A DNA stretch of 58,004 nt, counting the filler, from Dirinaria sp. TL-2023a (Eukaryota): the NCBI GenBank assembly GCA_051941275.1. It is 8 parts of 8 records of this genome, joined end to end, with 100 filler letters (N's around TTAATTAATTAA, not from the genome) between each part and the next. Parts side by side here need not be neighbours in the genome. Positions count along the whole stretch, not along the records: positions 43,628 to 50,773 come from JAVEBF010001361.1; 7 more parts are not named here. One strand, written 5' to 3'. A program made the position numbers and the translations under genes. Positions 7,186 through 50,873 of this stretch are shown piece by piece (the stretch's first letter is position 1; each line of letters begins with the position of its first letter). Below the pieces are notes generated by a model that saw only the letters and a list, made by a program, of their open reading frames with translations, was not told the origin of the DNA and did no database searches.

Positions 7186-7285
7186 NNNNNNNNNNNNNNN
7201 NNNNNNNNNNNNNNNNNNNNNNNNNNNNNTTAATTAATTAANNNNNNNNNNNNNNNNNNNNNNNNNNNNNNNNNNNNNNNNNNNN
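7186..7285. other. Artificial contig linker
   Basis: 44 N + TTAATTAATTAA (stops in all six frames) + 44 N. Confidence 0.99.
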
Positions 7286-14469: not shown

Positions 14470-14569
14470 NNNNNNNNNNNNNNNNNNNNNNNNNNNNNNN
14501 NNNNNNNNNNNNNTTAATTAATTAANNNNNNNNNNNNNNNNNNNNNNNNNNNNNNNNNNNNNNNNNNNN
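14470..14569. other. Artificial contig linker
   Basis: 44N-TTAATTAATTAA-44N. Confidence 0.99.
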
Positions 14570-21742: not shown

Positions 21743-21842
21743 NNNNNNNNNNNNNNNNNNNNNNNNNNNNNNNNNNNNNNNNNNNNTTAATTAATTAANN
21801 NNNNNNNNNNNNNNNNNNNNNNNNNNNNNNNNNNNNNNNNNN
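21743..21842. other. Artificial contig linker
   Basis: 44N-TTAATTAATTAA-44N. Confidence 0.99.
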
Positions 21843-29014: not shown

Positions 29015-29114
29015 NNNNNNNNNNNNNNNNNNNNNNNNNNNNNNNNNNNNNNNNNNNNTTAATTAATTAANNNNNNNNNNNNNNNNNNNNNNNNNNNNNN
29101 NNNNNNNNNNNNNN
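29015..29114. other. Artificial contig linker
   Basis: 44N-TTAATTAATTAA-44N. Confidence 0.99.
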
Positions 29115-36275: not shown

Positions 36276-36375
36276 NNNNNNNNNNNNNNNNNNNNNNNNN
36301 NNNNNNNNNNNNNNNNNNNTTAATTAATTAANNNNNNNNNNNNNNNNNNNNNNNNNNNNNNNNNNNNNNNNNNNN
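36276..36375. other. Artificial contig linker
   Basis: 44N-TTAATTAATTAA-44N. Confidence 0.99.
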
Positions 36376-43527: not shown

Positions 43528-43627
43528 NNNNNNNNNNNNNNNNNNNNNNNNNNNNNNNNNNNNNNNNNNNNTTAATTAATTAANNNNNNNNNNNNNNNNN
43601 NNNNNNNNNNNNNNNNNNNNNNNNNNN
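43528..43627. other. Artificial contig linker
   Basis: 44N-TTAATTAATTAA-44N. Confidence 0.99.
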
Positions 43628-44077
43628 CCCACTAGGGGCCTATGCGAGATCTATGTACTTGTGTCGACGCTGTGCTGACGATGCGTCCACTTCCTCTATA
43701 TTACATGCCGTTTCATCTATCCGTAGTACTAGGAAATCCTCCATGCGAGGACTCTATGGGTCTAAGAATTTGAAGGATCTGAATCTGAAGGACCAGCGAC
43801 TGCCTGAAACTGACTAAGTAGACCAGTGGATAGGATCATTCGTATCGCTGCGGTGGCGCCCGCGGCGCTACCTAGCAGCTTCCTCACGTCTGTGGTATTG
43901 TTCGTCCTTTGTTGCATCTCTAGTCTCTCTTGCCTCCATGTAGGGCACGTTAGTAGCACATGTCTAACTGTCATGCGGCCCTGTCCGCAGTCGCAGGTTC
44001 CTGTAGTCACTCCGGGAACACGTCGCTCGCTCAAGAATTGATTAAAGCCTATTTTGCCCGTCCTCAACTGTGTGAGC
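43628..44077 (-). mobile_element. 3' fragment of a non-LTR (Tad1-like LINE) retrotransposon ORF2, 5'-truncated
   Basis: QLRTGKIGFNQFL...CDCGQGRMTVRHVLLTCP...LL...TGLLSQF is the C-terminal CCHC knuckle region typical of fungal LINE ORF2. It begins abruptly next to AT-rich DNA. Confidence 0.85.
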
Positions 44078-44625
44078 CGCTAATCGTATTACTCATTCTA
44101 TTAATCCTAATTAATGATTCTATATCTTCACATTCCTAAACCAGATATCTTTATAAAAGCAATCACAAATCTATCAAATACGCAATTGAGATAAAATTAA
44201 CGTTCTTTATAAAACAATGCACTTTTATTCAACGATAAATAGAACGGGGCCCATCTGAGGCGATACTCCGAGGTTGACGACCATAGAGAATGGAACGGAA
44301 GCATCTTTGAGGTTATGGTCTAACGGATGGAGCAACACGACGGTTAATGTGATTGATTTGAGCGATGAACTGATTGAGAGCAGGAGTAGCGGTGGAAATG
44401 TGGAAACGCATAGCGTTGGGACAACGTAGAGTCCGCATATCTTCTGGACTATTACCCTTGGCCAAATACGCTGTACCTAATTTCGGCTGCGAGGCGGGTA
44501 GAAAAGAGCTCCTAGCTGTTGACAATCTAGTGATAAGCATTTGAGACGCTGGTTGATCACCATCTATATAGGCCTATACTAGTTTCGTTGCCTCACTTTG
44601 CAAAAAGATTTCATATGCTGCACTT

Positions 44626-46396
44626 CTACTCTCTTTGATTCTTCACCCTTTTCACTCGCGCTGGAAAGCCGTCGCTGGGACGTGCGCTTCCTAACTGGAT
44701 TTGATAGGCTCTTTCTCCATTGACAGCCTTTACCCCTTTCTGTTTTCGTCGGGAAGTGCTATCCCATTCTTTATATGCGTCGAGCACCTCAAATTCACGA
44801 GCCGTAGTGACCAAGACCAGTTTCAGCTCCGTAAGTGCCAATTCCTGACCGATACAGCTCCTGGGCCCAAATTCAAACGGTCGCCAGGCGTTCTTGATCG
44901 GGTAAAGGGGATGGCCTTCAGTGACCGTAAAACGCTCAGGGAGAAATTCCTCAACTCGGGGCCAGAAGAGAGGGTTGTTGTGGAGGCCGTGATGGTTGCT
45001 CCAGACCAGACAGTGCTCGGTGGGGTATTGGCGACCGTCGGTGTCTGTGAGCGAGAAATCAGGCTGACCGGCACGGGGAGACGTGACTACGGGGAAAAGC
45101 CGCAAGGTTTCCCTAATCACAGCGAGCGTATAAGGGAGCTGATTCAACAGCTGTGGTTGAGATAGCAGTACACGCGTTGCTTTGGTAGGATCAGTTCCAA
45201 ATACTAAGTCGTGTTCAGCACGAAGCTTTTTGAGCACAGTCGGGTTGCGAGACAAGAGCAAGTAAAGATAGCAAATAGTAGTCGCCGTCGTGTCATGACC
45301 GCCAAAGATAAAGAGTTTAATTTGGCTCATAGCATGTTCATGGAATACGGGATCAACAGCTTGAACAGGTTTTCCTTCGGGCAAATCCTGAAAGTAGCTT
45401 TTCAAGGCAAGATCAATTATCGTCTTACTAGCCAGCTCTTTAGTGCTAATGCTGGTGGCGTAGCATTCCTGAAGCTTCTTTGAGATATATCGGTTCATTC
45501 TATGAGCGTTATACCATTGATAGAGGGGGCGTAACGGATTCAACTTGTCAAAAAAGTTGAGCTCAGAGCCAAATTGGCACCACCGGATTTGATCGCGTAA
45601 TGCTGCCGTCATATCGTTGTATTTGCGCTGCGCATCAAATCGATCGTCGCTGAGCATAGTTAGTGATGTCACAGAAGTAGAAGACCTTGTTTCAAGATGC
45701 TTACAGTGCAACTCTGCCGATCACGTCTATCGATGCATTGATAGCTGTTTCGTCCAAGAAAAATATATCTCCTTTCTCGGCGTGACCCTCGAGAATGTTT
45801 TTGAAGATCGATAATTCTTCTAGCATACGTGGAACAAGGGTCACCATGTGGTTTGCGCTGAACCCAGGATTAAATATCTTCCGCCAAGTTTTCCACGTCT
45901 GACCTTCCATAGATACCAAATCAAGACCTCCTGTGACCGGACGCATAAATCTGCGGAATCCAGGGTGTTTGGGAAGCAGATTATCGGCCTGACTGAATTG
46001 GGATACGACATTGGGTGACGTAACAACCAGCATTGGCTGAGCCAATGGCCAAGCGTCGAGATAGTAGACGGGCCCTAGGTCAGGATACCGACGTCGTATT
46101 TGATCGGGCAGATAATGAGCGTGGGCATCGCGAGGGAGTTGTAAGACGAGACTAATGAACAAAGGAATGTGACCTAGTAAATGGTGATAAGGAGGCATTG
46201 CCTTCGGTCCTTAGCGTAACGTGCTCGATGTTTAGAAAATCAAGCTTACCAAACCTTGTTTCCTCAAAAGCCTGAAATGTCGACGCACGCTGTATAATCG
46301 TACGAGAAAGAACGCTATACCGATTCCTGTAAATGCTATGATACTCCGAGCTGTTGGACCGGTTCCTTCCCATCTTTTCGTTGCCGAAGCTGACAT
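44626..46396 (-). CDS. Cytochrome P450 (StcS/VerA-like lineage inferred); three exons
   Basis: N-terminal anchor; PPYHHLLGH; FGGHDTT (I-helix); ETLR; PERF; FEFGPRSCIG heme motif. Confidence 0.93.
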
Positions 46397-46958
46397 TGTA
46401 CCGATGGCAGCATGGAAGTATTGTAGTATGTGCAGAGCCAAAGGTATAGCTCCCCTCTATAATGTGAGCTTAGTGTTGATCGGCACTGAAGATTGATCTG
46501 GATTTAGCAAGGCATCACTGACCATCTTTACAGAGGTCAGCTTCTGTATGTTCCCGCTAAATTGTCCGCTAGTGCACAAGAAGTTTAGCACTTGATAAAT
46601 GACTTACCTTAAATGTCTTTGACACACGATATTAGGAAAATTTGGCAAAGCCACCTGGACTTGAAAGAAGCACATAACAAGGGTGAGTAGAGAAGAAAAC
46701 TTCGCATAGAGGAACAATGGGCGTGCAACCAATCTTACTTCGCCTCGCGGACGTTCTGATGGAAATCGCTTCACTTTTTCAGCCGGACGATGAGGCGACC
46801 AGGCAACCGGGCCTAGCTGAAATGGTTGGTCAGCGCACTCTTGTGTGCACTGGTGATGTCAATCTGGTGGCTTTCGGGTGTCCATTCAATGGCGTTCCTG
46901 CAGCATTTTCTAGCGCTTGGCGCGTTGACTCGGCGATCATCGCTCGATGATACGCCAT

Positions 46959-47091
46959 TACAGATACCTAGCAGAGCGGTTGGGAACGCGCCTGTGTAGC
47001 GTGATATGATATACGCCGAGCCAGCTGCAAAAAGACCCTTGTATTTATCCTTGAATGCGGCGGGCGCGTACCAGCCGCTGTGCTATCTGTA
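46959..47091. mobile_element. Putative MITE (Tc1/mariner-pogo type ends)
   Basis: Left end TACAGATA[CCTA]GCAGAGCGGTTGGGAACGCGCC versus reverse complement of the right end TACAGATAGCACAGCGGCTGGTACGCGCC; TA at both ends; 133 bp, non-coding. Confidence 0.55.
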
Positions 47092-47353
47092 GAAGTTGCA
47101 TGTTATCACGTTTCAGAGACTGTGGGTGTGCACTATCCCTGCTAACAGAACGTTGCGGCATTTGCGTTTTTGAAAACATGTATAGAAAATGTAACGTAAG
47201 GGGAGAAATCGATTCTGTATATTTCACAACTTTGACTTAGTTACGGATAAGATCTGGAAGTGAAAGGTAAGAAGTGAGCTTGAAATGTCATGATTTATTG
47301 AGATTGGTGACCTAATTGGACTTCGCATGCTGTCTATTTCTTCTATGTATGTA

Positions 47354-48141
47354 GGTTGTTATCTAGGTGTTTACACGACAACCCTTATGAGCGGAGGTCT
47401 ATGCCCCAATTGAGCCTAACGCTGGCCTTGCCGGGTACGGTATACCCTGCCGCACAGAGAACTTTTTGCTCAAAAAACACTATTTTTGAAATAACTCAAC
47501 AACGAAACGTGCAATTGACTTTATTAACGCGTTATTCGACCCGTCTGATTATTGCGCATCGGCCTCTGTGCGATAGTCACGATGGGGAGATCTGATTGGC
47601 CGTCAATGAGGCAAGAGAAGCCTGACATACGCGAGCATGACACAATGCTGCTTGTTAATACGAAAATCATGCAGATCAGAGCAGAGAAAGAAAACGTATC
47701 ACAACCGACTATAAGAGCATGGCTTAACGAGATAGTAGACTATCTGGAACGAGCAAAAGGCCTTACAATGCAGTTAGAAGCAATGAAGGCCATCAATCAA
47801 TTGATCATTAAAGTAGAACGCAGTCACGAAAGAATTGAGAAAAATACAACGATCATACGCAGTCACATAACAGAAATCGCAGCAACATCTGCTGCATTCT
47901 CATCGACGATCCTCATTGCTCTCAGAATCTGAGCAGTAGTGACAGCGAGCGCATCGTCATCGACGTCAAAGTCTTTCATCAACAAAAATATCGAGATTAT
48001 AGTTCGTCTAAACGATAGCAAAGTCAAACAAAAGCTTAGAGATCAGAATGCAGAGCACATTGTGAACAGCGTCAACGAAATCATCGCGAAGACGAATCTC
48101 ACAGCGAAAAGCATCAGAGCAGTTAAGAAATTGCTCAGCGA
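47354..48141 (+). mobile_element. Degenerate LINE 5' region with ORF1 (gag-like), cut off by the mini-LTR element
   Basis: ORF from ~47582 with a coiled-coil-like segment, an in-frame TGA at 47930, then EIIVRLND...IRAVKKLLS, which resembles the fungal LINE ORF1 motif I.AV.KLPSGD. It ends exactly at the LTR at 48142. The 5' boundary is approximate. Confidence 0.65.
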
Positions 48142-48610
48142 TGTCAAAGACCCAACCTTGGTTAGATAGGTTTCCCAATGGTAAAAGTCCCGGCAGCGCC
48201 AAAAGACTAACTAAACCAAGTCAAGGGACTTGGTGCCTATCTTACTACTGAGGTGTTCCAGGGTCGTAACACTACCCGGGGCTCTCTCCGAGCTTCGTCC
48301 CGAAGCTCAGCAAGCTCAGAGCCAATGGATAGGAGGTTCGCCTTAAGTGGAAAGGTTAAGTAGTCGCCCCGAGCTTAGATAAGCTCTCAGCCACAAGTCC
48401 TCGCCGAAACCCGAAAACCCTTCAAGCGTCCGGGCTGGGAGTCGAACTCAGAACCTTGCGACCGGGTTGACTTGGTTTAATGTCAAAGACCCAACCTTGG
48501 TTAGATAGGTTTCTCAATGGTAAAAGTCCCGGCAGCGCCAAAAGACTAACTAAACCAAGTCAAGGGACTTGGTGCCTATCTTACTACTTAGGTGTTCCAG
48601 GGTCGTAACA
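48142..48610 (-). mobile_element. Miniature LTR retroelement (TRIM-like): two 130-bp LTRs and a 209-bp non-coding core
   Basis: Direct repeats 48142-48271 and 48481-48610, bounded by TG...CA, with 2 mismatches. On the minus strand a PBS-position 13-mer is complementary to the LTR, and a weak purine tract precedes the second LTR. Confidence 0.8.
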
Positions 48611-50773
48611 GATCGTGGCGAGCGGAGTCTCAGAAATGAAATATGGCGAGAAGGATATTTACTTTAGGGACATACACCTCTTTCTTATCAGGGTCAAAGA
48701 GATGGTCGTTATCAGAGAAGCACAAAAGGTGAGAGATAATCTGTGATTGAGCTTAGCCGGCACATCGCAGAAATGGTACACAGGAGAGCTATCGGACAAT
48801 GAGCGTAGAATGATTAGAATGATCATGCCCGAAGCAATCGACGAGTTGGCGGAATGATCGAGCCTCTTGCTCGAACAGTTTCGAGCTTCTCACAATGTTG
48901 CTCTACAAAGTGTTCTTCGCGAGCGATACACCGTCCGCGATGTCGTCAATCGTAGAGAGTCAAGAGAATACGCTCAGAAGATATTGAGGGGTGTCAGAGA
49001 TGCCAAAATGAACGTTCTCAATCAGCTTGATATCATCTACAATGGTATAGACATGAAAGTTCGACTCGAGGATCTGAGGATGCCTTTCGAGAGCACAACG
49101 GTGAACGGATTTCTCAAACAGATGAAGAAATTCAAGCATGATTGATGAGTCAAAGAAGCTAAGATTATGCGTGATACTGCTCAAGATCAAGACAGTCACA
49201 CTGAACAAGACAGACAGTCTGATGACAATCGATCACTCTACGGTCAGTATAATATCAGTAACCGTCAAAATCAGTTTCAGTTCAGCTATTCACAGTCAAG
49301 GCAGCAATACTATTCACAGTCTTTTCGAGCGAACCCGTAAGAAGTGATCAATACTACGATGAACACTTCTTCTCAGCGGTTGCAAATTATCGCTGAACCG
49401 ACGCCAAACCCAGATCAAGTAAACGCCGCAGAGTCGAATTCGAATTATCAGAAACCTTATACAGCATCAAGCGTCATCGATTTCAATAACCCACGATACC
49501 CTCTCTATCTCACTACTGACAATAGAGATGGATTCAGTTACTATGATAACAATAATCGTGAGGGATATCAAAACAGCAATCGTAGTGGATATGAATATCA
49601 GAATAACAATCGTGGCGGATACGATTATCAGAACAATCGCGACGGATATCAGTATGATAATAATCGTCCTAGTTATCAAGGCGGTCAGAGAGATCCTCAA
49701 AACCAAAATCGATTTCAAGAGCAAAAGGCATATAATGTCACTGTTTTGGACGATATTGAAGAACTCATTACAGAGAAACATCCGATCAATAATGAGGAAC
49801 AAGAAGAATATCATGACGAGAAAGAAGAGAACTTGAAGTCAGAGAGAGAAACGAACGATGAGTTTTCTCAATACAGTGACGAATGATACAACGACGAAGA
49901 TGTCAATTTCATCATCTCTGATAACGATCAAAATATTCATCGTTGCGAAAAGTGCGATGACATTTTTTCATTCAAAAATCAGTTGTTTAAGCATTTGCGA
50001 CAACAATGTTGAAAGGATTCGATTTCATCATCAACGAATTCATCGTCACTCTCGATAGTAGAAACAGTGATCAACTCAGTTGAGCTTTCGACTCTTATCA
50101 AATCATCGTCAAGAGTGAACAACTCATCGAAGCAATCTTCTGAGCATGCGTTTAGGGATTGACATTATGCCATCACTAAGATTGATTTCGATAGCAACGA
50201 TAATTTTGAGAATGAAATCTGTTTGAATTCAGAATGCCCGATTACTACTGACGATAAGCAATTTATACTTTCTAAGCTATCAAATGCGAAGATCCACACC
50301 ATGTCGACCTCATTACCAATTAGAGAGGTAGGCAACAAGGTGATCAAATCAATCGAATACGTCATCGTTTCAGCCTACTTTAAGGGTAAGTGTAACGATA
50401 AATCGACTATCGCGGAAATCAATATGAAGATACATCTTATAAACGAGCTCAAGACAAAGCTACTCGTTGACGTCGATATTATTGCTTCGAAAGATATCAT
50501 CTTGACGTTTTCGAAGAATCGTCTTATCATAATCTCGTGTGAGAACTTTGAGATCATTATGAAATTCAAGACACGACTAAACTCGAACACGCGACGCATT
50601 ATTCGTGCGAAGAAAACATTCACTGTCGTCTCAGATCAAATGATGAACGTTTCAGTGATTTATCACGAGACGTTATCAGACGATCGTGATTTTCTTTTCG
50701 AGTCACAGTGCTCGATCGACATGAGTCTGAACGATGAAGTACATGCTCATGTGATTGATTCGACGTTACATAT
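48611..50773 (+). mobile_element. Mutated Ty3/gypsy-type gag-protease relic
   Basis: KDIYFRDIHLF..VRDNL..KWYTGELS..ERYT..RE(S)REY..NQL..YNG gag; C2H2-like HRCEKCDDIFSFKNQLFKHL; degenerate aspartic protease CLNSEC (from CLDSGC); many TGA stops at Trp positions; runs into the gap. Confidence 0.8.
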
Positions 50774-50873
50774 NNNNNNNNNNNNNNNNNNNNNNNNNNN
50801 NNNNNNNNNNNNNNNNNTTAATTAATTAANNNNNNNNNNNNNNNNNNNNNNNNNNNNNNNNNNNNNNNNNNNN
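50774..50873. other. Artificial contig linker
   Basis: 44N-TTAATTAATTAA-44N. Confidence 0.99.

Follow-up and report, generated by a model that had tools for sequence, protein, structure and literature searches.

Which mutational process could strip long runs of a retrotransposon of every CC and GG dinucleotide and leave CA, TG and CG in place? The question is raised by a stretch of DNA from Dirinaria sp. TL-2023a (assembly GCA_051941275.1), analysed here as a single window of 58,004 bases that comprises eight pieces of ∼7.2 kb each with artificial linkers between them; the pieces having been joined, features are not readable across the linkers. Judged by its reading frame and its relatives, the tract 47549-50773, with which piece 7 (43628-50773) closes, is the 5' part of a Ty3/gypsy long terminal repeat (LTR) retrotransposon, comprising gag, a zinc finger and the protease region, and it stops at 50773 because the assembled contig ends there and not for any biological reason. 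The element carries dense changes of C to T at C followed by C (CpC>TpC, equivalent to GpG>GpA on the other strand), and we consider a process like repeat-induced point mutation (RIP), with an altered target context, to be the probable cause.

The two intervals that the original prediction had singled out as devoid of CC and GG are indeed so. Neither dinucleotide occurs in 47941-48141, as compared with 23 CA, 4 TG, 15 CG, 19 TC and 19 GA, and neither occurs in 50416-50773, as compared with 24 CA, 22 TG, 28 CG, 35 TC and 41 GA, so that CA/TG and CG remain in both. Mononucleotide shuffles of the two intervals contain on average 17.5 and 25.9 CC+GG, respectively, with zero reached in none of 5000, and among equally long background intervals from the rest of the window the minimum is 7 (5232 intervals of 201 bp) and 20 (5106 intervals of 358 bp). 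Seven 500-bp steps span 47501-50773, and five of them have an observed/expected ratio (O/E) of CC/GG of 0.41-0.49; the other two are 48001-48500 (0.97), which lies mostly over an unmutated insert, and 48501-49000 (0.74), which consists of the end of that insert and a lightly mutated stretch. All other 500-bp steps of the 58 kb have values of at least 0.67, and the flank 46211-47548 is not depleted.

The deficit is accompanied by an excess of TC (O/E 1.63 over the span) and GA (1.35), both at 1.4-1.7 within the element, where CT/AG is close to 1 and TA is low (0.65). CG is high, with an O/E of 1.27 for the span as a whole and of 1.3-1.6 for those 500-bp steps that are mutated. The ratio (CC+GG)/(TC+GA) is 0.17 in the mutated part, as compared with 0.85 for pieces 1-6 and 0.79 for a neighbouring cytochrome P450 gene, and the guanine-plus-cytosine (GC) content of the tract stays at ∼0.40. 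Standard RIP indices miss such a tract, as had been anticipated: TpA/ApT is 0.51 and (CpA+TpG)/(ApC+GpT) is 1.29, the cut-offs given in the RIPCAL paper being ≥0.89 and ≤1.03, respectively (PMC2621366).

Protein relatives served as a proxy for the ancestor of the element. An exhaustive HMMER search with the read-through translation returned 1468 relatives at E ≤ 0.001, and the substitution spectrum is based on 153 relatives, 149 of them from this search and 4 from another, which fall into 74 with normal composition (Gly and Pro both ≥3.5%), 54 that are nearly free of the two residues (both ≤0.5%) and 25 between these classes. Columns were regarded as conserved where at least 8 of the 74 normal relatives were aligned with a consensus of at least 60%, the ancestral state was taken as the closest codon of the consensus residue, and C>T changes were then sorted by their 3' neighbour.

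At the 13 conserved Gly columns the window encodes Glu (6), Asp (2) or Gly (5) and never Ser, Arg, Asn or Lys; at the 16 Pro columns it encodes Ser (8, all TCN), Pro (7) or Val (1) and never Leu; and at the five Trp columns it has TGA four times and TGG once. Because Gly>Ser/Arg, Pro>Leu and TAG are all absent, it was the 5' member of the CC pair, equivalent to the 3' member of GG, that changed. Inferred C>T changes affect 30 of 65 CpC sites, 4 of 63 CpA sites, 2 of 46 CpG sites and 2 of 44 CpT sites, an enrichment at CpC with a Fisher odds ratio of 15.5 (p = 4e-12). C>T or G>A accounts for 38 of the 58 inferred changes, and the other 20, of other kinds, include ordinary divergence from distant relatives. 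Both strands are affected at an equal rate, with 12/26 CpC sites mutated on the plus strand and 18/39 on the minus strand. The changes are also directional: over all aligned cells, counted from relative to window, Gly to Asp/Glu occurs 515 times versus 36 in reverse and Pro to Ser 479 times versus 28, and the residue pairs diagnostic of CpA and CpG change are symmetric (His>Tyr 52/74, Cys>Tyr 3/4, Arg>Cys 5/9, Arg>His 49/37).

Most of the individual substitutions on which the prediction had been built hold up against these relatives. The change of REPREY to RESREY concerns a Pro present in 39 of ∼49 aligned relatives, for which the window has TCA; a Trp pair (WW) has become TGA TGA as compared with unmutated relatives; and the protease motif CLDSGC has lost both its Asp (51/52 relatives; AAT in the window) and its Gly (50/52 relatives; GAA). 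For FRGW, read as FRD followed by a stop, the change of Trp to TGA is supported, but the preceding residue is Gly in only 16 of ∼50 relatives.

The same procedure applied to the P450 gene, 1.3 kb away, with 119 relatives finds 1 change at 70 CpC sites, 0 at 69 CpA, 2 at 64 CpG and 1 at 61 CpT; the method therefore does not create a CpC bias, and the neighbouring gene was spared. The long exon of this gene is 96% identical to P0160, from a metagenome-derived assembly of Dirinaria sp., and the named matches next after it belong to other lichen-forming fungi, from which we conclude on sequence grounds that the host is a lichen-forming ascomycete, in agreement with the fungal host that had been proposed. 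A tally restricted to the closest relatives of the element (53-69% identity), in which 196 of 355 differences fit one transition, points the same way, its counts being non-independent and mixed with ordinary divergence. Of the 61 cases in which the derived base is that of the window, 34 have C as the 3' neighbour; in the cases with the derived base in the relatives, the context seen in the window is CC 30 times, CA 39, CG 35 and CT 31, out of 82, 286, 246 and 255 available sites, respectively. The homologue-guided reconstruction, the direction test and the P450 negative control all indicate a CC>TC/GG>GA spectrum as predicted, and not a CpA spectrum, and we regard it as well supported at the level of sequence comparison.

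The element itself has kept its frame. Over the 720 codons of 48612-50773 there are seven in-frame TGA stops, one TAA and no TAG, and the 2.16 kb contain no frameshift. Of 11 Trp codons, 8 are TGA. The full-length relatives P0009, P0022 and P0001, aligned over gag and protease, carry RVT_1, RT_RNaseH, Integrase_H2C2, rve, SH3_Tf2-1 and Chromo domains; the part of the element in the window matches no Pfam family itself, the reverse transcriptase and all that follows lying past the contig end. No member of the relative set aligns upstream of the insert, where the predicted change of KLPS to KLLS is placed, and the segment 47549-48142 is assigned to the element because it has an open frame and is continuous with the downstream frame. 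Within this segment 47549-47800 is lightly mutated and 47801-48140 is near saturation, with CC/GG counts per 100 bp of 2 and 7 around 47601-47800 and of 0, 1 and 0 across 47801-48100. No second copy of the element was found within the window by self-BLAST or by tblastn with 156 relatives, and single-protein scans of metagenome, viral and genome contigs returned no related DNA. Between gag and the zinc finger are five tandem copies of a ∼27-nt unit (49546-49679) coding for an Asn/Tyr/Gln/Arg-rich repeat (NNR-GY-YQ), in which GG has survived better than in the neighbouring stretches.

An insert splits the gag frame between 48142 and 48612. It is undepleted (CC O/E 1.27, GG O/E 1.23, (CC+GG)/(TC+GA) 1.34), and the hypermutated span of the original prediction, 47940-50773, takes it in. 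Its terminal repeats have two mismatches, one of which is C/T at a CpC site. The insert has no clear target-site duplication, no tRNA and no credible Rfam family; two Rfam matches to small nucleolar RNAs, far under the gathering score, fall elsewhere in the element. From its structure it looks like a miniature terminal-repeat element, which would either have arrived later than the mutations or have been too short as a target.

The same state recurs in public protein sets. Of the 153 relatives, the 54 that are nearly free of Gly and Pro reach up to 1641 residues, a proportion that is not to be read as a frequency because the query is itself mutated and therefore favours such matches. Where Gly is conserved these relatives have Asp (42%), Glu (26%), Asn (11%), Lys (6%) or Ser (6%), and where Pro is conserved they have Ser (54%), Phe (12%) or Leu (12%). 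They retain Cys at 87% (Tyr 1%), His at 80% (Tyr 6%) and Arg at 73% (Cys 1%, Trp 1%) of the respective conserved positions, and by these replacements they share the CpC-first spectrum. Their records come from ENA, Logan, JGI/IMG and NCBI, on contigs of 2-18 kb, which at the level of protein records shows that the phenomenon extends beyond this contig.

Many of these relatives, among them P0001-P0004, P0011-P0013, P0072, P0076, P0102 and P0111, are long open frames without Gly and Pro and with normal Trp. Their sequences evidently represent Ty3/gypsy polyproteins that were hypermutated and then predicted on metagenome contigs, possibly by gene calling with TGA read as Trp. Several mutated relatives (P0118, P0142, P0093, P0117 and P0126) terminate precisely at positions occupied by Gln or Arg in longer relatives, as expected of CAA/CAG>TAA/TAG or CGA>TGA, which hints at a minor CpA/CpG component hidden in a sample based on open reading frames (ORFs).

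Elsewhere in the window the remaining pieces contain ordinary fungal genes, and no methyltransferase was found among the 24 ORFs scanned in the eight contig pieces. At the opposite end of the contig from the element is a 105-codon ORF on the minus strand (43762-44079) that is rich in Cys, Gly and Pro and has no Pfam match; among the members of its nearest family-bearing Atlas cluster, 16% have zf-RVT, which at a score of 0.89 is a weak lead. This ORF may represent the tail end of a retrotransposon of the non-LTR kind (long interspersed nuclear element, LINE) and, if so, would be a repeat fragment spared by the CpC process. The coordinates of the features are collected in the following table.

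Table 1. Features of the element, its neighbourhood and the linkers of the window
Feature	Position	Strand	Basis or remark
gag reading frame, N-terminal part	47549..48142	+	translation: 198 codons, one in-frame TGA
Nested insert, 470 bp	48141..48610	+	131-bp direct repeats (48141-48271 / 48480-48610), 98% identical, flanking 208 bp
gag, C2H2-like zinc-finger stretch, aspartic-protease region	48612..50773	+	frame and stops, relatives, substitution spectrum; main hypermutated tract
CC/GG-free run, 240 bp	47912-48151		
CC/GG-free run, 219 bp, within element	49797..50015	.	
CC/GG-free run, longest	50415..50773	.	up to contig-piece end
Cytochrome P450 gene	44626..46210	-	ORF calls; P450, Ascomycota matches; unmutated; negative control and host marker
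Linker closing piece 7	50774..50873	.	N run, TTAATTAATTAA, N run
Linkers (artificial)	7186-7285, 14470-14569, 21743-21842, 29015-29114, 36276-36375, 43528-43627, 50774-50873		

We propose that the element was probably inactivated by a RIP-like process that attacked double-stranded DNA and preferred C at the +1 position. A burst of C-to-T change would have struck both strands at C with a 3' C, converting GGN codons to GAN (Gly), CCN to TCN (Pro) and TGG to TGA (Trp) and nearly sparing CpA, CpG and CpT. The agent would be a cytosine methyltransferase-like or deaminase enzyme acting on double-stranded repeated DNA, with +1 C in place of +1 A and with an activity modelled on that of RID and DIM-2 in Neurospora; its identity, its dependence on duplication and its premeiotic timing are what we infer. 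This reading rests on changes that are directional, transition-only, dense and equal between the strands, that stay within a transposon and spare the gene next to it, and that came fast enough to leave a frame with no indel and almost no non-TGA stop. The original prediction had reached a similar interpretation, of which the CpC spectrum, the blindness of the indices and the fungal host stand as observations, and the repeat-defence system goes a step beyond them.

Several points weigh against the proposal. Only one copy of the element is at hand, and the property by which RIP is defined, its dependence on repeats, is something that we infer; the relatives moreover all belong to one retroelement family, which leaves room for a process specific to retroelements. 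The ancestral states come from proteins 22-49% identical and not from DNA copies, so synonymous and non-coding sites are invisible. The density of CC/GG inside the element is uneven, from 0 to 10 per 100 bp, with CC/GG retained in 47549-47800 (∼250 bp), 48611-49100, 49400-49800 and 50290-50400; a runs test over the 65 inferred CpC sites gives no significant patchiness (z = -0.83), and mosaic short-read assembly of differently mutated copies could account for the patches. In the relatives that lack Gly and Pro, 87% of conserved Trp columns still have Trp; for the model to accommodate this, gene callers must have translated TGA as Trp, the simplest account of this retention. Four Trp-free ORFs stop exactly ahead of a Trp that is read through by P0030, and ORF ends just before Trp number 10/50 among mutated and 5/45 among unmutated relatives, an ambiguous comparison, the others ending before Gln or Arg. 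Lastly, ripped repeats in the lichen-forming Cladonia rangiformis reach a GC content of 10-20% (PMC12542154), a level that CpC-only mutation could not yield.

Were the substrate a replication intermediate of the retrotransposon and not repeated DNA, a CC-preferring, APOBEC-like single-strand cytidine deaminase could be responsible. The victim is indeed a retroelement, every Gly/Pro-free relative found comes from the same retroelement family, and the process has spared the nested insert, the P450 gene and, on the same contig, the ORF that may be a LINE tail, although this restriction to retroelements was seen with a single-family search only. We think this origin unlikely given that the strand rates are equal, whereas editing of complementary DNA (cDNA) gives plus-strand G>A, and that in CC it is the 5' C that is targeted (Pro>Ser 8 versus Pro>Leu 0; Gly>Asp/Glu 8 versus Gly>Ser/Arg 0; TGA 7 versus TAG 0). 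APOBEC3G itself is alike in having a CC target on a retroelement and in turning Trp codons into stops. It hits the 3' C of CC, and it does so on one strand, giving GG>AG and TAG stops, whereas here the 5' C is changed on both strands, giving GG>GA and TGA stops with no TAG. The signature of APOBEC3G-like cDNA editing is not seen here, the strands being equal and Gly>Ser/Arg being absent among 8 changed columns, Pro>Leu among 9 and TAG among 8 stops. Slow decay of a silenced, methylated element would need no dedicated mutator, only spontaneous deamination of 5-methylcytosine placed preferentially at CpC. Methylation outside the CG context is frequent in fungal repeats, the process is expected to yield C>T, and unevenness along the element could track methylation density. 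This too we judge improbable: there is no frameshift over the 2.16 kb and a single non-TGA stop, changes of other kinds number 20 as compared with 38 C>T/G>A, many of the 20 being ordinary divergence, and saturated stretches of 219-359 bp together with relatives of up to 1641 open codons without Gly or Pro argue for a fast and specific burst.

That there was no mutational event at all, the depletion being native to the family, due to chance or an artefact of sequencing or assembly, is very improbable. The assembly is fragmented and metagenome-derived, the contig ends inside a repeat, and mosaic assembly could explain the patches. Against this, none of the 5000 shuffles reached the observed depletion, and a native CC/GG deficit of the family is contradicted by the 74 relatives whose Gly and Pro contents are normal; the changes are directional and have destroyed the catalytic motif of the protease, with both the Asp and the Gly of 51/52 and 50/52 relatives lost, and the same state is found in proteins from independent sources. 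Decay by CpG methylation and deamination, of the Microbotryum/Tuber type, was rejected on the CG O/E of 1.27 over the span and the 2 changes at 46 CpG sites. Damage of the ultraviolet (UV) type, which strikes dipyrimidines at their 3' base and would lower the TC count, was rejected as well: TC is enriched here and not depleted, and such damage would not stay within the transposon.

Mutation contexts have reportedly been surveyed in 49 ascomycetes, in work by Clutterbuck that appeared in Fungal Genet Biol in 2011. Canonical RIP, as in Neurospora crassa and most Pezizomycotina, where RID/DIM-2 convert CpA to TpA, resembles the process proposed here in its C:G to T:A transitions on both strands, in a density that ranges up to saturation, in striking a transposable element beside an untouched gene, in targeting the 5' base of CpN and in having a filamentous ascomycete as host. 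Unlike in canonical RIP, the 3' neighbour is C and not A, there is no excess of TpA, GC falls only to 0.40, the stops are nearly all TGA, and a role for RID/DIM-2, like repeat dependence, would be putative. CpA RIP was rejected as an explanation because only 4/63 CpA sites changed, versus 30/65 at CpC, and because the two RIP indices given above fall on the unripped side.

The mutation context of repeats is known to vary among fungal lineages, with CpG-biased RIP-like signatures (Aspergillus, Tuber, Microbotryum TpCpG) and CpT-biased ones (Magnaporthe, Botrytis, Sclerotinia) (PMC2621366, PMC4352252); unlike in these lineages, CpG is enriched here (O/E 1.3-1.5) and CpT changes number 2/44. The signatures set out in the available text of Amselem et al. 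2015 (PMC4352252) are CpA, CpT and CpG, and in the RIPCAL tables, as far as they were available, CpC>TpC appears as a formal class only (PMC2621366). RIP has been reported from lichen-forming fungi, namely Cladonia rangiformis (PMC12542154) and Xanthoria (bioRxiv 10.1101/2025.11.25.690456), which are alike in being Lecanoromycete hosts with LTR/Ty3 elements as the main victims and sharp boundaries to the gene space. In the available text of these reports the criterion for RIP is either a low GC, of 10-20% in Cladonia, or the extent of large RIP-affected regions, without dinucleotide context, unlike the GC of ∼0.40 and the CpC context found here. According to the available text of a kingdom-wide survey from 2025, RIP-like defences share a CpA preference, and strong repeat-directed signatures occur in 130 species from four ascomycete classes, Lecanoromycetes not being among them (PMC12543289). 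In the literature searched, supplementary tables such as the k-mer tables of PMC12543289 being outside the search, we found no report of CpC-dominant RIP and could not find a prior description of a CpC target preference in mutation that resembles repeat defence.

RIP surveys score CpA>TpA or AT-rich k-mers. A RIP pathway with CpC rather than CpA specificity may operate in the lichen-forming Lecanoromycetes, or if not in all of them then in the lineage to which this host belongs, a possibility that we place just short of probable; such a pathway would erase Gly, Pro and Trp codons, leave CpA and CpG intact, lower GC modestly, produce only TGA stops and leave products that are common in metagenome protein sets. 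With its modest GC drop and TGA-only stops, it would be invisible to TpA-based RIP indices and to scans for AT isochores. If real, a CpC-specific form would be an exception to the shared CpA preference, and RIP would be under-counted in lineages that have it, since the standard indices call such a tract unripped. The TGA-only stops have a further consequence for annotation, in that gene callers allowing TGA as Trp may emit long bogus proteins from such tracts, and the 54 Gly/Pro-free relatives among 153 suggest that protein collections are already polluted in this way. The CpC form, if confirmed, would offer a natural specificity variant with which to ask which part of a RID/DIM-2-type enzyme reads the +1 base. 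It would also suggest a different balance of cost and benefit in the host, as the loss of Gly, Pro and Trp inactivates proteins with little drop in GC, perhaps without the formation of AT-rich islands of heterochromatin.

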